DNA of 20,094 nt from positions 1 to 20,094 of the IMG/VR virus record IMGVR_UViG_2563366990_000010, one strand, 5' to 3'. The first letter of the stretch is position 1; the number at the start of each line of letters is the position of its first letter. This DNA comes from a virus (Duplodnaviria; Heunggongvirae; Uroviricota; Caudoviricetes). Shown piece after piece: positions 1 through 15,708 of the stretch. Below the pieces are notes generated by a model. It saw nothing but the letters and a program-made list of their open reading frames with translations, made no database searches and had not been told where the DNA came from. The translations under genes and the position numbers were made by a program.

Positions 1-243
1 TTATCTTGAAGGGTTAGTTGATGCGCCATTAACCTGAGCATTATTTCTTTCCCACTCCAGAATATCAGAAAGCCACCAACGATTGGGGTTTCCCTTTATT
101 GTTGGTTTAGGAAATGGTTTGCTGAGGGACTTTGGCTTTCTGTCTGGAGTACTCCAGAAATACAGAGTGCTTCGTGAAATTTTATATCGTTCCAGAATAT
201 CTTTGGTTAACAAGATTTCATTTGTTTTTGTAATGTCGTTCAT
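1..243 (-). CDS. AlpA-family excisionase / transcriptional regulator (Xis-like), 80 aa
   Basis: Complete ORF with stop at 1-3. The translation shows an AlpA-type HTH signature (ILLTKDILERYKISRSTLYFW ... NRWWLSDILEWE). GGAGA ribosome-binding site about 7 nt upstream of the ATG at 241-243. Sits at the distal end of the leftward operon where xis lies in lambdoid phages. Confidence 0.55.
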   Translation of the reverse strand: MNDITKTNEILLTKDILERYKISRSTLYFWSTPDRKPKSLSKPFPKPTIKGNPNRWWLSDILEWERNNAQVNGASTNPSR

Positions 244-272
244 TTTATTCTCCAGTTGAATTGTTTAATCAT

Positions 273-295
273 CGAAAAACCGCCCGAAGGCGGTT
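273..295 (-). terminator. Candidate intrinsic terminator on the minus strand between the 83-aa ORF and the xis-like gene
   Basis: Perfect 7-bp stem AACCGCC / GGCGGTT with a 4-nt loop at 278-295, followed on the minus strand by a U-run (plus-strand AAAAA at 275-279). Confidence 0.45.
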
Positions 296-296
296 G

Positions 297-548
297 TCAG
301 TTGATTGATGTGCGGCGCATTTTGCGAAGGCTGGCAATATGCTTTTCCTTCTCAATTTCTGCTTTAATCATGTGTAGTTCGTTGTGATCGATTCGCTCAA
401 ATTCTGCATTAAATGCGCTAATTGAAGCGGCTCTGGTTCTCCCATCCAGCCTTCGGAAGATTACCTGCGTCAGAGTGATTTTGCAGACTTCAACCGGATA
501 GTTGTTGGCATCGACGAAAGACTGCCCGCGCTGGATTAGAACGAACAC
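297..548 (-). CDS. Hypothetical protein, 83 aa
   Basis: ORF between exo and the xis-like gene; the first codon is GTG and the ribosome-binding site is weak. I recognise no family. Confidence 0.45.
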   Translation of the reverse strand: MFVLIQRGQSFVDANNYPVEVCKITLTQVIFRRLDGRTRAASISAFNAEFERIDHNELHMIKAEIEKEKHIASLRKMRRTSIN

Positions 549-596
549 CGGTAGTATTCCTTAATTGTCATATCATTTGCACCTCGTTGCTACTGG

Positions 597-1277
597 CTAT
601 CGCCATTGCTCCCCAAATACAAAACCAATTTCAGCCAGTGCCTCGTCCATTTTTTCGATGAACTCTGGCACCATTTCGTCAAAACCAGCCATGTATTTTT
701 CATCCCGTTCGACCACGACATAATGCAGTCCTTCACGCTTCATACGCGGGTCATAGTTGGCAAAGTACCAGGCATCTTTTCGTGTCACCCACATGCTGTA
801 CTGCACCTGGGCCATGTAAGCCGACTTTATGGCCTCGAAACCACCTAGCCGGAACTTCATGAAATCCCGGGAGGTAAACGGGCATTTCAGCTCAAGGCCG
901 TTGCCATCACTGCATAAACCATCGGGAGAGCAGGCGGTACGCATACTTTCGTCGCGATAGATGATCGGGGATTCAGTAACATTCACGCCGGAAGTGAACT
1001 CAAACAGGGTTCTGGCGTCGTTCTCGTACTGTTTTCCCCAGGCCAGCGCCTTAGCGTTAACTTCCGGAGCCACACCGGTGCAAACCTCGGCAAGCAGGGT
1101 GTGGAAGTAGGACATTTTCATGTCAGGCCATTTCTTTCCGGAGCGGGGTTTTGCTATCACGTTGTGAACTTCTGAAGCTGTGATGACGCCGAGCCGTAAT
1201 TTGTGCCACGCATCATCCCCCTGCACGATAGCTCTCACGTCGATCCCGGTACGCTGCAGGATAATGTCCGATGTCAT
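597..1277 (-). CDS. exo: Lambda-type 5'-3' exonuclease (Red alpha), 226 aa
   Basis: The translation is near-identical, from recall, to phage lambda Exo (YqaJ-type fold, same 226-aa length). Its start overlaps the bet stop. Confidence 0.95.
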
Positions 1278-2059
1278 ATTGCCACCTTCTGCTCTGCGGC
1301 TTTCTGTTTCAGGAATCCAAGAGCTTTCACTGCTTCGTCCTGTTTCAGTTCTGACAATGCACGAATGTCGCGGCGAAATATCTGGGAACAGAGCGGCAAT
1401 AAGTCGTCATCCCATGTTTTATCCAGGGCGATCAGCAGAGTGTTAATCTCCTGCATGGTTTCATCGTTAACCGGAGTGATGTCGCGTTCCGGCTGATGTT
1501 CTGCAGTGTGTGCGGTATTTTCGACAATGCGCTCGGCTTCATCCTTGTCATAGATACCCGCAAATCCGAAGGCCAGCCGGGCACACTGAATCATGGCTTT
1601 ATGCCGTAACATCCGTTTGGGATGCGACTGCCACGGCCCCGTAATTTCTTTGCCTTCTCGGGTTTTGAATGGTGCGCGGCGACATTCATCCATCCACTCG
1701 GTAACGCAGATCGGGTGATTGCGATCTTTGCGGTAAATCCGGCATGTACAGGACTCATTGTCCTGCTCAAAGTCCATGCCATCAAACTGCTGGTTTTCAT
1801 TGATAATGCGGGACCAGCCATCAACGCCAACCACCGGAACGATGCCGTTCTGCTTGTCAGGGAAGGCGTAAATTTCTTTCGTCCAGGGATTAAGGCCGTA
1901 CTGGTTGGCGACGATCAACAATGCGATAAATTGCGCATCGCTGGCATCACCTTTAAATGCCGTCTGGCGAAGAGTGGTGATTAGTTCCTGTGGGTCGACA
2001 GAATCCATGCCGACACGTTCAGCCAGCTTCCCTGCCAGCGTTGCGAGTGCTGTACTCAT
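1274..2059 (-). CDS. bet: Lambda-type single-strand annealing protein (Red beta), 261 aa
   Basis: The translation is near-identical, from recall, to lambda Bet (261 aa, RecT/Red-beta family). Lies directly between gam and exo as in lambda. Confidence 0.95.
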
Positions 2060-2064
2060 CCGTT

Positions 2065-2361
2065 TTATACCTCTGAATCAATATTAATTTGGTGACGGGC
2101 GATGGTTTCAGCCATGTAGCGGATGTGTTCTGCCATGCGTTCCTGAAAATCGACATCGTCATCAAATGCACGGGAAATAGCTTTTTTGCTGGCCCCGTGA
2201 CGTTGCAGATTATCGATGCATAGCGATTCAAACAGGTGTTGGGGCAGACCTTTTTCCAGGTCGTCTGCCAGCTCAGCTTCAGTTTCTTCACGGGCAATTT
2301 GCTGGTAGTGTCGTGCCCATGACTGCTCTTCAATGCGATCGGGGATAAGCCAGGCATTCAT
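2065..2361 (-). CDS. gam: RecBCD inhibitor Gam, short 98-aa form
   Basis: The translation matches the lambda Gam C-terminal domain ([14 protein letters not shown] ... [20 protein letters not shown]). Its ATG overlaps the upstream ORF stop (ATGA), so only the 98-aa form is encoded here. Confidence 0.92.
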
Positions 2362-4430
2362 GATTTATCACCTCCGAAATTTTCAAGCCTGTTGGCAATC
2401 ATGATGGCGATATCAGGGATTGCTGGCGCTGTGGCTATACATGCGGGGTTGGCGCACAAACCATAGACGGCGGCAATCACGAGCTGTCTTTTCCAGTCGA
2501 GAGTTACTGGCTCAGAATTGGCGTCATCGCCGGACGTATCACTGCCTGGCTCGTTCTGAACAACGGTTTCGCCCTCCTGAGCGGCATCAACAGAGTTTTC
2601 CTGAATGATCTTCTCCTCAGTTTGTGCTGAGTCTTCTCCATCAGCGGCGTCATTTTCTCCAAAAGTTTCTGTGTAAGTGCTATCGCCCATTACCGCACTA
2701 CAGTCAGGGCAGTTACCCCCGCCAGTCTGACCACAGACGCGGCAGTTTTTTTCCAGCTCCGGTTGCGCTACTGGGGCTGGCTGTTGCTCTTCTGGCCCGT
2801 TTTGTTGCGTATCCGGGCTGTTTTGTCCCGCTTCTGGGGCAATTTGTTCCACTTTGGACTGATTCTGGTCCTCAGTGTCGCGAGCCTGGATCCCCTTAAT
2901 CCACTTCGGGTCGGTTGGGTCGCTGATGCCTTCAACGAATTCTCCTCGAGAAGCTGCCAGTAATTTGTCGGCATCGACTGGATTCCTGGGGGGAATGTTT
3001 TCCCTGGCTTTATTGAGTTCCTCCCGCAGCTTCTGGTATTTCGTTTCTACAGATGAGACATTTTCCAGTGATTGCGTGTCCTCATTATGTTTAACTGGAA
3101 TTTTTTCCACTGATTCAGGCGCTGCCTGTTCATTAGCCATTGTGTCTGATGCTTGCTGCTTTTCTTCATCGTTATGTTTCTCTTCTGTTGTTCCGCGCTG
3201 CGGCATCGGGGCTGATGAGCGACCGCAGGCAATTTCCACGATCTCCGGATCCGGGTTAGTGTGATCGGTTTCGGTTAACACTTTGTTGAGATACTCAGTC
3301 ACGCGTGCCGGGATGGCCTCAATGCCGATTGGTGCTTCTTTCACGGAAGCCACCACAATGGCGCGGGAATAATCCAGCCCACCGGGCATGGCGATAAATT
3401 TGTCGCGAAAAACAGAAAAGGGCGGCTTATTCTCTGACACGATTTCTTCAACGCGTTTTGCGTGTGCTGGGTGCAGGTTATAAATATCCACATCCATTGA
3501 ACGGGCCAGAACGCCGGTGGCTACATCTCGTGCGAGTGATGTCTTATCATGTTTGAATCCTTCACCACGATCGGTAATATTTCCGCCGCCAGCGTTAGCA
3601 CCGGAAGGCGTACGGGTAATGCCTGAAACATAATTTCCGTTCTGCCATTCTTTTGTCAGCAGGCCCTGATCAAGGTAGTCAGTTTTCATCCAGGTGGAAA
3701 TGAACTTGTCGAATTCAGCCGGGCTGATGCGATGATTTGCAGAGTGGGGGAATGCTTTCCCTACAGATTCAGCCAGGCGACTAAGGTGATAGTTCGTCAG
3801 TTTATCCAGTTCATGATGCGCGGCGCGCACAGCAGTAAGCAGGCTCTGAAGGTAACTGTCCTCTGTGTCCATCTCCATACGGATCACGTTATTGCGTTGT
3901 TCTGGTGTGGCATGATGCCGGTATTTTCCATCTTCATCTTTGCTGAATAAGAAGAGGTGAAGGAAGCGATGAGTAAGGCTCAGAGTGGCGACGGGAATTT
4001 CACACTCAGAACAGTCATCGTCGCTGTCCGGGGATTCGTTTTTCTCCACATCATCCGGAATAGTTCCGTCCGGGTCATCGTTGTCATCGCCAGCAGTTGT
4101 GGCATCTTCACCGTTGATGTTGTCATTGAAGGGTATAGCCATCATGGTGATGCCATCTTCCCCGCCTTTTTCATAGCGGTTGCAGAATTCAGTATCAAAC
4201 ACGCCTTCCGGTGGAAGGTCATTCACGACGGGGAAATTTACGCGAACGGGTTTTTTGAAATCATCCTCGTCGTAGCCTGCATCGTCCATGGCTGCAATGC
4301 AGCGGGAAACTGCGACAGAAAGTTTTCTGGCATCAGCCCAGAAAAAACCGCCTTTGATGCCAAGGCGTTTTCTGACTTTATCGTTTTTTGCTTCGCAGTG
4401 TAGTGCAAAAGTCTGTTTATCAGCGCTCAT
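2358..4430 (-). CDS. Large acidic hypothetical protein, 690 aa
   Basis: Uninterrupted 2073-nt ORF in the leftward early operon immediately upstream of gam, translationally coupled to it. Contains poly-acidic low-complexity tracts, a C-x2-C-x8-C-x2-C motif ([15 protein letters not shown]) and a hydrophobic C-terminal segment. I recognise no family. Confidence 0.8.
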
Positions 4431-6641: not shown

Positions 6642-6947
6642 TCAATCGTAATAAGCCGGAATTGATTTTCCGCGTTGTTTCTGGCGGCCTGAGCAAGTCA
6701 CACCCATTTCACTGCGTGGTTTGCGGTAGTAAATACGGTTCTGTTTACTCTCGACTTCTTCTGCCTTCTTGCAGCGAAGGCTTCCGAGTGATACTGCTTT
6801 GTCTGCTCCGACGCAACCAGAGATCTTTAGCGCAATCTTCCGTGTCAGTCTTTCACTACTGCGCCGCTCTGCAATAAGTTCTTCCCTGCGAGCTTTATAG
6901 CGGCTTTTTGCCGTACCTTTGGATTCTTTCCAGATTATGGTTACCAT
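6642..6947 (-). CDS. N: N-type transcription antiterminator, phage-21-like arginine-rich motif, about 101 aa
   Basis: Small, very basic protein whose N-terminus carries GTAKSRYKARREELIAERR, matching the arginine-rich motif of phage 21 N as I recall it. AAGGAG ribosome-binding site 6 nt before the ATG at 6945-6947. boxA/boxB lie directly upstream on the same strand. Confidence 0.8.
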   Translation of the reverse strand: MVTIIWKESKGTAKSRYKARREELIAERRSSERLTRKIALKISGCVGADKAVSLGSLRCKKAEEVESKQNRIYYRKPRSEMGVTCSGRQKQRGKSIPAYYD

Positions 6948-7057
6948 GATGGTCTCCTTTAAGTGGCTTTGGTGTATGACGCGTCGAGGTGTTTTTCTTC
7001 TCGATCGCGGCCTTGCAACTGAAATTCGCGTCATCCCCAAAACCACTTAGATTTTGG

Positions 7058-7098
7058 TCTCAACGGTTAGGTTGAGAGTCCATCAATGTTAAAGAGCC
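7058..7098 (-). promoter_or_regulatory. nutL: boxA plus boxB hairpin
   Basis: On the minus strand GGCTCTTTAACATTG (boxA-like; plus-strand 7084-7098) is followed by the hairpin TCTCAAC-CTAACC-GTTGAGA (7-bp perfect stem; plus-strand 7058-7077), just upstream of N. Confidence 0.7.
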
Positions 7099-7146
7099 GG
7101 CCAATCTGTTCCGTTTGGCTTCCAGCGTCCTGCTGTTGAATTGAAG

Positions 7147-7209
7147 ATAACCTAAGTTATCTGGTTGCGCAATAACTATATTTATCATTTTATGAAAAAC
7201 GTTATAAAT
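7147..7209. promoter_or_regulatory. OL operator cluster overlapping the leftward early promoter
   Basis: 14-bp sites of form ATAAC-N4-GTTAT: ATAACCTAAGTTAT (7147-7160), ATAACTATATTTAT (7172-7185) and a degenerate third near 7196-7209, about 24-25 bp centre to centre. Same consensus as the OR sites. Confidence 0.5.
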
Positions 7210-7280
7210 GACTGATAACAAAAATATTTTATTTTTTGTGGTATCCGCGTGATATTTTCAAGGGGGAAAGGCTGATTGTT

Positions 7281-7502
7281 ATGGGTGATTGCATGTTAAT
7301 CGAAGGGGAATTTGGTGTGTTGCACCAGCGGGTAGTCGAAATTCTAGGGGTGTCGTTGCTTGAGGTTATTGCTACTGGGGAAGCTATTTCAGCAGATGCT
7401 ATTGCGGGAATGATCCGAGTGCTTCACCATGATGAATTGGATGATCTCGCTGTGAAGTTAGCTATAGATGTGTTACTTCAGGATATGCGACTGTGTAATT
7501 AA
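7281..7502 (+). CDS. Hypothetical protein, about 73 aa, between OL and cI on the opposite strand
   Basis: The ORF track gives 7236-7502 from a TTG. I place the start at the ATG at 7281, which has a G-rich ribosome-binding site (AAGGGGGAAAGG). Occupies the slot where lambda carries rexAB. No family recognised. Confidence 0.35.
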   Translation: MGDCMLIEGEFGVLHQRVVEILGVSLLEVIATGEAISADAIAGMIRVLHHDELDDLAVKLAIDVLLQDMRLCN

Positions 7503-7530
7503 GTAAATAAAACCCGGCACTGGAGCCGGG
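7503..7530 (-). terminator. Intrinsic terminator downstream of cI (minus strand)
   Basis: Perfect 6-bp GC stem CCCGGC / GCCGGG at 7513-7530 with a 6-nt loop, followed on the minus strand by UUUUAUUUAC (plus 7503-7512 A-rich). Confidence 0.55.
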
Positions 7531-7654
7531 GGATTTAGAAATGGCATTTTATGAATTGGCTACTTGGCGAATGGTTTACCATCGGTGGTATTGAGCACAA
7601 TAAAAAGCCGTTCTTCGTGAGTGTTCTTATAGCAAAAGTTCAGTTGGAGTCTGA

Positions 7655-8362
7655 TTACCAGCTATGTGATGACCAGAACACTCGCCCTATGATTCTTACG
7701 TTTTTGTAGAATTCTTCTCTGTTCATTACTTCATCAGGATACTCTTCGCGGTTTATCGATCTGATAATTACCGATGTTGGCGTGGCTATGAGCGTTTTTA
7801 CCCTTAACAAATCAGCTTGGCAAATTGCATATGTTTTACCATCCCTGATGCTCGTATCTTGCGTGTTTACCCCCACCACATCACCATCATGGAGTGTTGG
7901 CTCCATGCTTTGCCCAACAACCCTGACCAACTTTGCCGCTTTTTCTGGAACTCCCATTTTTTTCAGGTAATAGCGCCTAAAAACTAGAGAGAATTCTGCG
8001 GACTCCTCCAATGCACAACTTCCTCCGCCAGCTGAAAGTGAAATATTTAGAAGGGGGAGCGCAACAAATTCGTCATTATCATTTTGATGATCATCCCAGG
8101 CGATAGCTTTTAAAGATGATTCCCGAGCATTAGATGGCTCTTCTGCGCTCTGTGGTCTCATTGACCCTATACCAGAGCTTAGCCATTCAGGGCGAACTCT
8201 TAACGCGTTGGCTAATTCGACCATTTTACGTGATCCGGTTGTTTTACCAGATGACATCTTTTGTATGGCTGGTTGTGATACCCCCACCATGTCTGCAAGT
8301 TGTGCTTGTGACAACCCGGCTGAACTCATGGCGGCATTTAGTCTTTCTGCGAATGTTTTCAT
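7655..8362 (-). CDS. cI: CI-like prophage repressor (N-terminal HTH plus C-terminal S24 LexA-like peptidase domain), 235 aa
   Basis: N-terminal HTH (LSQAQLADMVGVSQPAIQKM). C-terminal autoproteolysis domain with a G-Q-S-M-E-P serine motif and a downstream lysine; a candidate Ala-Gly cleavage site (LSAGGG). Divergent from the cro-like gene across the operator region. Confidence 0.9.
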   Translation of the reverse strand: MKTFAERLNAAMSSAGLSQAQLADMVGVSQPAIQKMSSGKTTGSRKMVELANALRVRPEWLSSGIGSMRPQSAEEPSNARESSLKAIAWDDHQNDNDEFVALPLLNISLSAGGGSCALEESAEFSLVFRRYYLKKMGVPEKAAKLVRVVGQSMEPTLHDGDVVGVNTQDTSIRDGKTYAICQADLLRVKTLIATPTSVIIRSINREEYPDEVMNREEFYKNVRIIGRVFWSSHSW

Positions 8363-8373
8363 ACCTGTAATCT

Positions 8374-8436
8374 ATAACCACGGTTATCAAAAGTAAAACA
8401 ACAATTGTTATTGCTCTGGTGTATAACTCATGTTAT
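8374..8436. promoter_or_regulatory. OR tripartite operator between cI and cro
   Basis: Three 14-bp sites of form ATAAC-N4-GTTAT: ATAACCACGGTTAT (8374-8387), ACAACAATTGTTAT (8398-8411) and ATAACTCATGTTAT (8423-8436), with 24-25 bp centre-to-centre spacing, lying between the divergent cI and cro starts. Confidence 0.6.
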
Positions 8437-8472
8437 TTTTGGTTATGCTTTATTTGCTGTAGAGGTATGCTC

Positions 8473-8697
8473 ATGAATTTAGTGATTCAGCGAGCCTTGA
8501 ATATTGTTGGCAGTCAAAAACGACTTGCAGCTGATTGCGGCGTATCACAGCCCGCTGTTCATAAATGGTTGCGAGGCGGAAAAGTTTCTCCTGAAAAAGT
8601 TTTCGCTATCGTTAATGCCACCAATGGTCAGGTTAAGGCTTACGAAATTCGCCCGGACTTACCGCACCTGTTTCCTCATCCGAACCAGGCTGAATAA
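8473..8697 (+). CDS. cro: Cro-like HTH regulator, about 74 aa
   Basis: Small HTH protein (LAADCGVSQPAVHKWLRG) divergent from cI. I place the start at the ATG at 8473, with AGAGG 7 nt upstream; the ORF track starts at 8419. Confidence 0.75.
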   Translation: MNLVIQRALNIVGSQKRLAADCGVSQPAVHKWLRGGKVSPEKVFAIVNATNGQVKAYEIRPDLPHLFPHPNQAE

Positions 8698-8704
8698 GTA
8701 ACAC

Positions 8705-8745
8705 CGCTCTTTAACATTGCTGGTCGTTCACCTCTAACAGGGTGA
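8705..8745 (+). promoter_or_regulatory. nutR: boxA plus boxB hairpin
   Basis: CGCTCTTTAACA (8705-8716) followed by the hairpin TCACCT-CTAACA-GGGTGA (8728-8745). The loop resembles the nutL boxB loop CTAACC while the stem sequence differs but still pairs. Confidence 0.65.
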
Positions 8746-8813
8746 GCAAACATCAGTGGCAAACCCATTGGGGATTGCCGCTTAACCCCATATCAATATA
8801 GGAAAATTAACAA

Positions 8814-9110
8814 ATGTCACAAACAAGTTACAGCAAACTGTCACAGCGCGATATCGATCGCGCTGAAACGGATTTACTTATCAACCTGTCAGCTCTGACG
8901 CAAAGGGGACTGGCGAAGATGATTGGCTGTCATGAATCGAAGGTCAGTCGTACCGACTGGCGATACATCGCGGCTATTTTATGCGCGTTTCAGATGGCAT
9001 CTGATATCAGTCCGATCAGCCGGGCTTTCCAGCATGCCATTAACGTTCATGCAAATAAAAAACGTCCGGTTGGGGCCGGACGTTCTGAGCAAATCCTGAT
9101 GAATATCTGA
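8814..9110 (+). CDS. cII: CII-like transcriptional activator, 98 aa
   Basis: The C-terminus (KKRPVGAGRSEQILMNI) resembles lambda CII as I recall it; central HTH; positioned between cro and the replication genes. Confidence 0.8.
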   Translation: MSQTSYSKLSQRDIDRAETDLLINLSALTQRGLAKMIGCHESKVSRTDWRYIAAILCAFQMASDISPISRAFQHAINVHANKKRPVGAGRSEQILMNI

Positions 9111-9273
9111 TATTCAGGCAGGGCATGGAGCAATACACGGGAATAATTCTGCCACATCTGGAAGAATTTCGCCAGCAACAACACCAACCGCAGCAGCCTG
9201 AAGCCGATTGGGTTAACCCGGAAATTACGGGGACCGTCTGCGGTATGGAGTAAATCTTGTATGCGAGGGGACT

Positions 9274-10350
9274 ATGCGTAATTACGCAACAATTTCACCT
9301 CAGTTCTGGTTAGGCGATACAGGGCGAAAACTCAGGAAGTCTGGTCCGGAATGTATGGTAGTGGCGTTGTATATGATGACCTCGCCTCATTCCAATATGC
9401 TGGGCCTTTATTACCTGCCTGTTTTGTACATTGCTCACGAAACCGGACTTGATCCTGAAGGGGCTTCTAAGGGGCTTCAAATGGCTTGCGAGGCTGGTTT
9501 TTGCAGCTATGACCATGATTCTGAGGTTGTATGGGTGCATGAAATGGCAGCATGGCAGGTTGGTGAATCGCTGAAACCTGGCGATAACCGTTGTGCTGGG
9601 GTAAGAAATGAATATTCCGCGTTGCTGGAAAATCCTTTTTTATCATCCTTTTATGATAGATATAAGGATGATTTCCACCTGGATGTCAGACGTGAATCAT
9701 GTCGGAAAATTGAAGCCCCTTCAGAGCCCCTTTCAAGCCAAGAACAGGAACAGGAACAGGAAAGAGATAAAACCCTTCTGGTCCATGGCGAAAAAATCGC
9801 CACGGACCCACTGGTGGATTCTTGTCCCGTTCTGACTGAACGTCCAGGACCAGCTGGCATGACACCGGAAGCAGATTCCGGGCGTTGTGTGCAGCAGGTG
9901 CTGCTCGTCGAACCGGAGCAACAACACCAACCGCAGCAGCCTGAAGCCGATTCCGCGATGAGCGGGAAGCCGATTGGGTTAACCCGGGCGATGCCGGGAC
10001 CGTCTGCGGGACGAGTTGATTATCCTGACGTGTTCGAACGGGTCTGGCGTGAATATCCGCATCGGGCAGGGTCAAACCCGAAGAAATCCGCGTTCAATGC
10101 CTGGAGGGCCAGATTACGCGAAGGGGTGTCACCGGATGTCGTGCTGGATGGCGTGAGGCGTTACGCAAGATACCTGGAGGCTACCGGGAAAGCGGGAACT
10201 GAATTTGTTCAGCAGGCATCGACGTTTTTTGGCCCGAACAGGAATTTCGAAAATCCGTGGTCGCTGCCGAAGGCTGGCGCAGTCAGCCAGCGTTGCGTGA
10301 ACCACATTTCTGAACCGGACACCGAAATTCCGCCGGGGTTCAGGGGGTAA
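9274..10350 (+). CDS. Replication initiation protein (O-like position), 358 aa
   Basis: Sits in the O slot immediately upstream of the DnaC-like loader. Contains a (CAGGAA)x3 tandem repeat, an AT-rich 9-bp inverted repeat, and a segment that is duplicated upstream of the gene. Confidence 0.6.
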   Translation: MRNYATISPQFWLGDTGRKLRKSGPECMVVALYMMTSPHSNMLGLYYLPVLYIAHETGLDPEGASKGLQMACEAGFCSYDHDSEVVWVHEMAAWQVGESLKPGDNRCAGVRNEYSALLENPFLSSFYDRYKDDFHLDVRRESCRKIEAPSEPLSSQEQEQEQERDKTLLVHGEKIATDPLVDSCPVLTERPGPAGMTPEADSGRCVQQVLLVEPEQQHQPQQPEADSAMSGKPIGLTRAMPGPSAGRVDYPDVFERVWREYPHRAGSNPKKSAFNAWRARLREGVSPDVVLDGVRRYARYLEATGKAGTEFVQQASTFFGPNRNFENPWSLPKAGAVSQRCVNHISEPDTEIPPGFRG

Positions 10351-14546: not shown

Positions 14547-14602
14547 TCTTCGCACGGTCGAGTTGGCCGTCGGGATTGGAACCCCGGATAGAGACCGCGA
14601 CA

Positions 14603-14628
14603 AACACACGCCGCGAGCGTGTTTTTTA
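14603..14628 (+). terminator. Leader terminator / attenuator-like hairpin about 55 nt downstream of the promoter
   Basis: Stem ACACGC / GCGTGT with loop CGCGA (14605-14621) followed by TTTTTTATT, located about 160 nt upstream of the antirepressor ATG. Confidence 0.5.
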
Positions 14629-14788
14629 TTGTCGTATGCACGCGCACATCTGAATTATGGTGGGGCGCATGGGGGAGCTGAAAAGCTCGCCGGTCGGTTT
14701 CCCGGTAGTTCCAACCCTGTGCGTCTCACCACCCGATGATTGGAACCTTACGGTGGTGATAGTTTAGAAACCACTAGAGGGCGTCATT

Positions 14789-15492: not shown

Positions 15493-15708
15493 CCGCTCCA
15501 TGGTGCTGAACACACCTTCGAAAGCGGAAACCGCGCCCGTCAGTCATGCGGATTTTTTATGTCCATTTTTCAGATATGGTCGGGTAGCGCGTATACCGAA
15601 AAACAGCCGCAAGGCTAAGGATGCGGGCCGAACTTTCGACGGTGTTCAAGTACCCGACCGCCCTGCTGAACACGGGGTGATCTGAACGAATCGAAAGGAC
15701 ATAAAACT

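Follow-up and report, generated by a model that had tools for sequence, protein, structure and literature searches.

Which DNA sites, and which proteins that read them, set the immunity of the lambdoid prophage represented by IMG/VR record IMGVR_UViG_2563366990_000010 (Caudoviricetes)? The stretch analyzed here, positions 1 to 20,094 of this record and called the window below, contains a lambdoid immunity module in which the repressor gene cI and the gene cro diverge from a right operator region (OR), and a left operator region (OL) lies before the antiterminator gene N. An earlier sequence-only reading had proposed that both regions share a 14-bp motif, ATAAC-N4-GTTAT, which would define the specificity of the repressor. 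We hold it very probable that five 14-bp dyads, three at OR and two at OL, are operators shared by cI and Cro, and that together with the recognition helices of both proteins they form the immunity determinant. This reading draws on motif statistics, gene context, the footprint of conservation across related loci, the co-variation of half-sites with recognition helices, homology to the phage 434 repressor, a common design of the predicted leftward and rightward promoters (PL and PR), and the independent listing of the same sites by Yin et al. (2015).

A search of the whole window found exact copies of ATAAC-N4-GTTAT at 7147, 8374 and 8423 and copies with one mismatch at 7172 and 8398, with no further copy at either level (Table 1). 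Every coordinate that the sequence-only reading gave for the motif common to OL and OR was correct, and the motif search recovered its three OR sites, 24-25 bp apart, between the divergent cI and cro genes. Neighboring sites start 24 and 25 bp apart at OR, and 25 bp apart at OL. The expectation from 100 dinucleotide-preserving shuffles of the window was 0.00 exact sites (3 observed) and 0.54 sites with at most one mismatch (5 observed), and the observed numbers were reached in 0 of the 100 shuffles. All five dyads are intergenic and fall in two regulatory intergenic regions; none of the five lies in coding sequence, and the concern that the motif might be as frequent in genes as at OL and OR was not borne out, there being no coding copy with up to one mismatch in the window. 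Position 2 is T in nine of the ten half-sites, and a search for any other repeated motif in OL or OR found none. The surroundings are those of a lambdoid switch: cI, with its helix-turn-helix (HTH) and S24 domains, and cro are divergent, N and cII lie on either side, and the same dyad is repeated at both OR and OL and not elsewhere. The OR sites (8374-8436) are placed inside the 110-bp gap that separates cI from cro, and the OL sites (7147-7185) upstream of the leftward N gene.

The strongest evidence comes from the parallel change of proteins and sites. In the window, the recognition helices of cI (VSQPAIQK) and Cro (VSQPAVHK) are nearly identical, and the combination of (V/I/L)SQPAIQK in cI with (S/T)QPAVHK in Cro goes with ATAAC half-sites here and in 81 other loci. 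SQAAIQK in cI with (T/S)QQAVYK in Cro is found with ACAAC/AAAAC (loci L007 and L083), and the same cI helix with TQGAVWK in Cro is found with AAAAC-like half-sites (L009). AQSSVNK (AQSSINR in L084) with AQSTICD (SQSTICD in L086) is accompanied by ATCGC (L084 and L086-L089), and AQPSVWK with KQPSVWA by ATAGC (L085). There are five cI/Cro helix classes, each with its own half-site, and the half-sites of all classes are set in the same 5-N4-5 frame of 14 bp. Because the helices of cI and Cro and the half-site change in parallel, the dyads appear to be read by both proteins and to determine immunity specificity, which supports what had been proposed for the repressor.

On the protein side, residues 6-66 of cI align without gaps to residues 4-64 of the 434 repressor (E = 3.6e-8). 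Among solved structures, no other natural protein is nearer to the cI DNA-binding domain, and the top rank goes to an engineered variant of 434. With an offset of +2, the recognition helix S29-Q30-P31-A32-I33-Q34-K35 puts Q30 at 434 Gln28 (kept), P31 at Gln29 and K35 at Gln33, and R45 falls at Arg43 (kept). In the 434 repressor complex, Gln28 reportedly reads adenine 1 and Gln29 base pair 2, and Arg43 is said to lie in the central minor groove. Such contacts fit an A1 that is kept in every class and a position 2 that differs (T in the window, C in 434), and we infer that the window cI may contact its operator in a 434-like manner, with Q30 at A1, K35 close to C5:G and R45 in the minor groove of the center. 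Across the classes, Pro versus Ala or Gln at the position of 434 Gln29 accompanies T versus C or A at operator position 2.

The likeness to 434 extends to the architecture. A homologous DNA-binding domain goes with 14-bp, two-fold symmetric operators (in 434, ACAA-N6-TTGT, three at OR and three at OL), and in both systems cI and Cro share recognition-helix residues, the -35 hexamer of the cI maintenance promoter (PRM, predicted in the window) follows directly after OR2, and OR3 lies within the PRM spacer. Two relatives, L007 and L083, carry ACAAC-N4-GTTGT, which fits the 434 consensus. The specificity itself is not that of 434, whose immunity goes with ACAA-N6-TTGT and Q28-Q29-x-x-x-Q33: the window half-site ATAAC has T where 434 has C (position 2), its C at position 5 is conserved, and the helix is SQPAIQK (Q30-P31-A-I-Q-K35) against TQQSIEQ in 434. 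The two also differ in OR spacing (24/25 bp in the window, 22/23 bp in 434), in PR, whose predicted layout is lambda-like in the window, with OR1 in the spacer and -10, whereas 434 is annotated with OR2 in the spacer, and in the cI mRNA, which is apparently leaderless in the window but has a leader with a ribosome-binding site in 434. The window Cro, moreover, is of the YdaS/P22-Cro type. The window system resembles 434 in how it works, not in its immunity, and, judged from these comparisons, 434 and not phage 21 is the closest characterized system.

The footprint of conservation was read from six loci of other genera and 80 viral contigs, beside annotated phage and Escherichia coli records. 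In 82 loci (window included), three ATAAC-type sites stand between cI and cro. These loci represent 13 distinct OR variants and 647 kb of sequence, and come from E. coli, Kluyvera, Enterobacter and Entomohabitans, with cI identities of 43-100%. Overall, cI is 47% identical in Kluyvera, 43% in Enterobacter and 74% in Entomohabitans; its N-terminal 75 residues are about 80% identical in Kluyvera and Enterobacter and 70% in Entomohabitans, and the recognition helix is unchanged in all three. OR spacing is 24/25 bp in every one of the 82 loci. At OR1 and OR3, the ten half-site positions are invariant across the 13 variants and the central 4 bp vary freely, and OR2 is the only OR site with half-site changes (ACAAC, ATAAT, ATAAA, GCTTAT), being imperfect in 6 of the 13. 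Two OL sites are kept in the loci whose sequence includes OL, with an essentially perfect OL1; position 10 of OL2 is non-consensus in 13 of 13 distinct OL variants (T, once C), as in ATAAC-N4-TTTAT. Outside OL and OR, the 647 kb contain no exact site, the lone apparent match being OL1 of L071, where the pairing rule failed to pick up OL2. Matches with one mismatch outside OL and OR number 27 (11 distinct sequences), against about 17 expected by scaling the window shuffles, and most of them are a single inherited coding site within a replication or helicase gene. These recurrent matches being consistent with chance and shared ancestry, the idea of further operators outside OL and OR in the relatives was rejected.

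The centers of the sites show regularities of their own. Among the 13 variants, which are not independent, the central 4 bp are site-specific: OR3 has a CG step in 11 of 13 (CACG, TACG, CGTG and others), OR2 is A-rich (AAAG, AATT), and OR1 lacks the CG step (mostly TTGA or TTGG). In 434, the central operator bases tune affinity, and by analogy the order of site filling may depend on the differences between centers.

Promoter hexamers were assigned by manual reading and by conservation in relatives. A consensus promoter scanner called nothing at OL or OR at its threshold, so that the positions in Table 1 come from those two sources; the hexamers seen by eye are conserved and make up a consistent layout of the lambda type. 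Predicted PL and PR are built alike, each with a -35 overlapped by 1 nt of the second site (O2) and a -10 overlapped by 3 nt of the first (O1). The PL start predicted at 7137 is also where the annotated PL start of phage 21 falls when mapped via nutL homology. PR is expected to start at about 8445-8446, and the leaderless PRM transcript at about 8362. For PRM, the -35 region GTTATTTTACT is kept in the ATAAC-class OR variants except L006/L081 and one with ATTAT, and the center of OR2 lies at about -42.5 from the cI ATG. In all relatives inspected except L009, a -10-like hexamer stands 6 nt before this ATG, or 7 nt in the most common variant from E. coli, and the cI start has no Shine-Dalgarno sequence. 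The conserved position of the hexamer suggests that the cI mRNA is leaderless, as in lambda. Two other assignments were rejected. A PR arranged as in 434, its -10 lying between OR2 and OR1, finds no usable hexamers there in the window, and GGTTAT at 8441-8446, right of OR1, taken as a fourth OR half-site, persists in close relatives alone and is absent from L080, L010 and L011; this GGTTAT probably belongs to the PR start region.

Table 1. Features of the immunity module, by position in the window
Feature	Position	Strand	Sequence or domain	Remarks
N antiterminator gene	6642-6947	-		phage-21-type arginine-rich motif
nutL, phage-21-like	7058-7097	-		boxB hairpin 7058-7077, boxA 7088-7097; mapped from phage 21 annotation
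Predicted PL -10	7144-7149	-	TATCTT	TATCTT/TATCCT in relatives; start near 7137
OL1 operator	7147-7160		ATAACCTAAGTTAT	exact dyad; relatives vary only in central 4 bp
Predicted PL -35	7167-7172	-	TTGCGC	TTGACC or TGGACA in relatives; 17-nt spacer
OL2 operator	7172-7185		ATAACTATATTTAT	1 mismatch, G10 to T; 25 bp from OL1
Candidate OL3	7192-7205		ATGAAAAACGTTAT	2 mismatches, effectively a half-operator
Lone half-site	7215-7219		ATAAC	9 bp past OL3 GTTAT, then T-run; conserved
Intrinsic terminator downstream of cI	7513-7530	-		hairpin -13.4 kcal/mol, z = -2.8
cI repressor, 235 aa	7655-8362	-	Pfam HTH_3 + Peptidase_S24	
Predicted PRM -10	8369-8374	-	TAGATT	6 nt before cI ATG; 1-nt overlap with OR3
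OR3 operator	8374-8387		ATAACCACGGTTAT	exact
Predicted PRM -35	8392-8397	-	TTTACT	directly abuts OR2; 17-nt spacer contains OR3
OR2 operator	8398-8411		ACAACAATTGTTAT	1 mismatch
Predicted PR -35	8411-8416	+	TTGCTC	weak consensus match; GTTAT-TGC register as at PL; 17-nt spacer
OR1 operator	8423-8436		ATAACTCATGTTAT	exact
Predicted PR -10	8434-8439	+	TATTTT	preceded by TGT (extended -10); TATCTT in relatives
cro, 74 aa	8473-8697	+	Pfam YdaS_toxin/HTH_3	P22_Cro below cut-off
cII	8814-9110	+	Pfam Phage_CII	E = 6.5e-26

Read together, these features suggest the following switch. A cI dimer with a 434-like HTH would place one SQPAIQK helix on each ATAAC half-site, and dimers on O1 and O2 would mask the -10 and -35 of PR and PL and so keep the lytic operons off. 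The dimer at OR2, abutting the PRM -35, could activate transcription of the leaderless cI mRNA, as in lambda, and Cro or excess cI at OR3, inside the PRM spacer, would turn PRM off. The S24 domain has a probable Ala111-Gly112 cleavage site and Ser152/Lys189 (assigned by eye), and RecA-stimulated self-cleavage of cI, induced by the SOS response, would release PR and PL. O2 may be filled with help from O1: an imperfect O2 beside a perfect O1 at a fixed spacing of 24-25 bp suggests such help, and cooperative filling of O2 is plausible on this pattern.

Several points weigh against the operator reading or against parts of the switch built on it. Many of the 82 loci are close relatives, so that conservation within the two E. 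coli alleles alone, which have 95% identity across OR, is weak evidence, and the argument rests mainly on the distant loci and on the other specificity classes. The hexamers predicted for PR and PL match the consensus weakly and went uncalled by the scanner, and a literature search found neither binding nor footprint nor reporter data on this repressor. The spacing of 24/25 bp is not universal in the family, since three of the four loci in the ATCGC class (L084, L086 and L087) have their two exact OR sites at a distance of 27 bp, against 25 bp in L088; at OL, sites of this class are 25 bp apart in L084, L087 and L088, and a third site stands at 21 bp in L087 and L088. Finally, the repressor of phage 933W was reported to bind adjacent sites non-cooperatively (PMC3317979), so that spacing alone is no proof of cooperativity. 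The last two points also favor a view in which the operators are real and each is bound independently, as in 933W, with O2 and O3 occupied according to intrinsic affinity and the spacing set by promoter geometry; the overlap of O1 and O2 with -10 and -35 hexamers 17 nt apart would fully explain that spacing. The imperfect second sites speak otherwise, OL2 being imperfect in all 13 and OR2 in 6 of the 13 variants, each beside a perfect O1, as expected if O2 needs help, and the repressor that Shiga toxin (Stx) phage BAA2326 encodes does bind OR1 and OR2 cooperatively (PMC5977221). We regard independent binding as a real but minority possibility.

The remaining alternatives concern the identity of the sites. 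The dyads might serve a single protein, Cro for example, with cI reading another sequence, or a longer one, in these regions, and the assignment of cI and Cro to different HTH Pfam families (HTH_3 versus YdaS/P22_Cro) would fit this. The nearly identical helices SQPAIQK and SQPAVHK, which both change with the half-site across four tabulated classes, and the lack of any other repeated motif in OL or OR make it very unlikely. Still less credible, and largely refuted by the comparison with relatives, is an origin of the palindromes in chance or in the composition of AT-rich intergenic DNA, as by-products of promoter hexamers, or as sites of a host protein. The regions are indeed AT-rich, and the sites overlap -10-like sequences through the TAT of GTTAT, but no shuffle reached the observed counts, no exact site occurs elsewhere in the 647 kb, and half-sites that co-vary with phage-encoded helices are not expected of a host factor or of base composition. 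Operators common to cI and Cro thus remain our reading of the five dyads.

The third OL site needs separate treatment. The sequence-only reading had seen two clear OL copies and a degenerate third; the two clear copies stand, as does the degeneracy of the third, but as a full operator the third does not. At two mismatches the window gives 15 matches against 7.4 expected, so that the candidate at 7192-7205 is not significant by itself, and the case for it is one of positional homology with relatives. Relatives from E. coli, Kluyvera and Enterobacter keep its GTTAT half (7201-7205) at a distance of 20-21 bp from OL2; its left half differs between lineages and is not conserved. At the same offset of 20-21 bp, a better third site is present in L011 (ATAAC class, one mismatch), L085 (ATAGC class) and L087 and L088 (ATCGC class). 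A full operator at 7192-7205 was rejected, as the match is not above chance and only the GTTAT half is conserved; on this comparison, the window OL3 is best seen as the positional homologue of a real OL3, decayed to a half-site. From its GTTAT half onward, the stretch 7201-7238 holds two outward-facing half-sites, GTTAT-N9-ATAAC, and a T-rich run, in a spacing that is fixed even in the Kluyvera and Enterobacter relatives. These half-sites could be additional, weak operators or an element that controls a small rightward gene at 7293-7502 (69-73 aa, PHROG 3946, hypothetical in RefSeq), which lies between OL and the cI terminator, convergent with cI, and whose promoter would have to fall in the region of OL3 and the T-run. 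In the 85% sister allele, a 297-bp gene on the cI strand takes the place of this gene.

The layout of the lambda switch, including activation of PRM by cI from OR2 near -42, is established knowledge, and the window resembles it in a tripartite OR between divergent cI and cro, in O1 and O2 overlapping the predicted -10 and -35 of PR and PL, in OR2 near -42 of PRM, in a predicted PRM -10 (TAGATT) 6 nt before the cI ATG, and in a repressor with a self-cleaving S24 domain. It differs in the operators, which in lambda are 17-bp sites of other sequence, in a cI DNA-binding domain with nearer relatives than that of lambda cI, and in an OL3 that is only a half-site. That the operators of this repressor differ from the 17-bp lambda sites had been proposed from the sequence and holds, the window sites being 14-bp dyads.

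Phage 21 had been named as the comparator for the operators, and this did not prove apt. N and the nutL/nutR elements are of the 21 type, and 7000-7136 (nutL and the N leader) is about 90% identical to phage 21, but the annotated operators of phage 21 are unrelated 18-bp, P22-like sites (ATTTAAG-N4-CTTAAAT-like), its repressor is different, and the window operators are not 18-bp sites of the 21/P22 type; phage 21 was therefore rejected as the operator reference. The similarity ends at about 7136-7137, a mosaic junction. Since the homology to phage 21 ends at the predicted PL start, the immunity module begins exactly there. Downstream of cro, a nutR-like element at 8705-8746, with boxA CGCTCTTTAAC (8705-8715) and a boxB-like hairpin at about 8727-8746, resembles the nutR of phage 21 by eye.

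In the same biological setting, two Stx-type lambdoid prophages studied by the Koudelka laboratory, with footprinted operators, also have three OR sites, with repressors unlike the window cI. Phage 933W has 15-bp dyads and only two OL sites (PMC3317979), and the sites of BAA2326 are weakly symmetric, with OR1 = ATAACTGTGCGTAATG (PMC5977221).

The same operators have been listed before. As putative operators of PST3/PA28, Yin et al. (2015; BMC Genomics 16:733, PMC4587872, Table S5, Additional file 6) gave all five window sites with the sequences of Table 1, as a prediction without analysis. The sixth site in their table, ATAAATGACTGAT, corresponds to window 7204-7216, where there is no dyad and no comparative support; it straddles two oppositely oriented half-sites and was rejected as OL3, the positional homologue of which is 7192-7205. 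The OR and OL labels in Table S5 are swapped relative to the gene positions, its OL1-3 falling between cI and cro. Searches for the site sequences, and for ATAAC/GTTAT together with "operator", found nothing in the main texts of the literature and only this supplementary table. Fattah et al. (2000; PMID 11245215), on Stx phage immunity regions, may contain an earlier account. The operators are thus already known as a published prediction, and their architecture is that of the lambda/434 paradigm. No new kind of regulation is involved: the set is an ordinary lambdoid one, with 434-like site geometry and a lambda-like promoter layout. What this analysis adds is the footprint and the co-variation of helix and half-site, 434 as the relevant relative, and a corrected OL3.

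The module is carried by toxin phages. Positions 7000-8750 are 99.7% identical to Stx2a phage PA28, and the same identity is found in phage 06-3462 and a dozen Stx1a-converting phages. The immunity type is that of PA28 (PST3), with near-identical cI and cro and operators identical to the listed sequences. The cI protein is 100% identical in 14 phage records, of 5,426 complete E. coli genomes about 50 carry the module, and a sister allele (about 79% DNA identity) is found in about 110 more records. The operators fix the immunity group of this prophage type, whose carriers include Stx1a and Stx2a phages, and cross-immunity is predicted between phages that have the SQPAIQK helix and ATAAC sites in common, with an overall repressor identity of only 43-85%. 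They also provide a defined target for studying the inducibility of these toxin phages.

A broader proposal is more tentative. The 434-like cI/Cro family could form a natural specificity series, with at least four helix classes that read four different half-sites (ATAAC, ACAAC, ATCGC and ATAGC) within a single, fixed frame of 14 bp while cI and Cro change in parallel, on which the ATAAC class has superimposed tuned features; we think this possible, though doubtful as a whole. If true, the series would allow a simple, testable recognition code. In the ATAAC class, which Stx phages carry, the imperfect OL2, the variable OR2, the CG-containing centers of OR3 and the half-site OL3 may represent tuning for a low repressor level and easy induction, as has been proposed for other Stx phages.

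Some observations fall outside the immunity module. A direct repeat at 9174-9243 and 9917-10009 (36 nt at 100% and 49 nt at 84% identity) lies upstream of and inside a replication-initiator-like gene (9274-10350), encodes a repeated QQHQPQQPEAD peptide and looks like a partial duplication. Further to the right, Rfam matches above the gathering score were obtained for isrK (14554-14627), C4 antisense RNA (14653-14736), sRNA-Xcc1 (15578-15667) and the sok antitoxin RNA (19776-19947).

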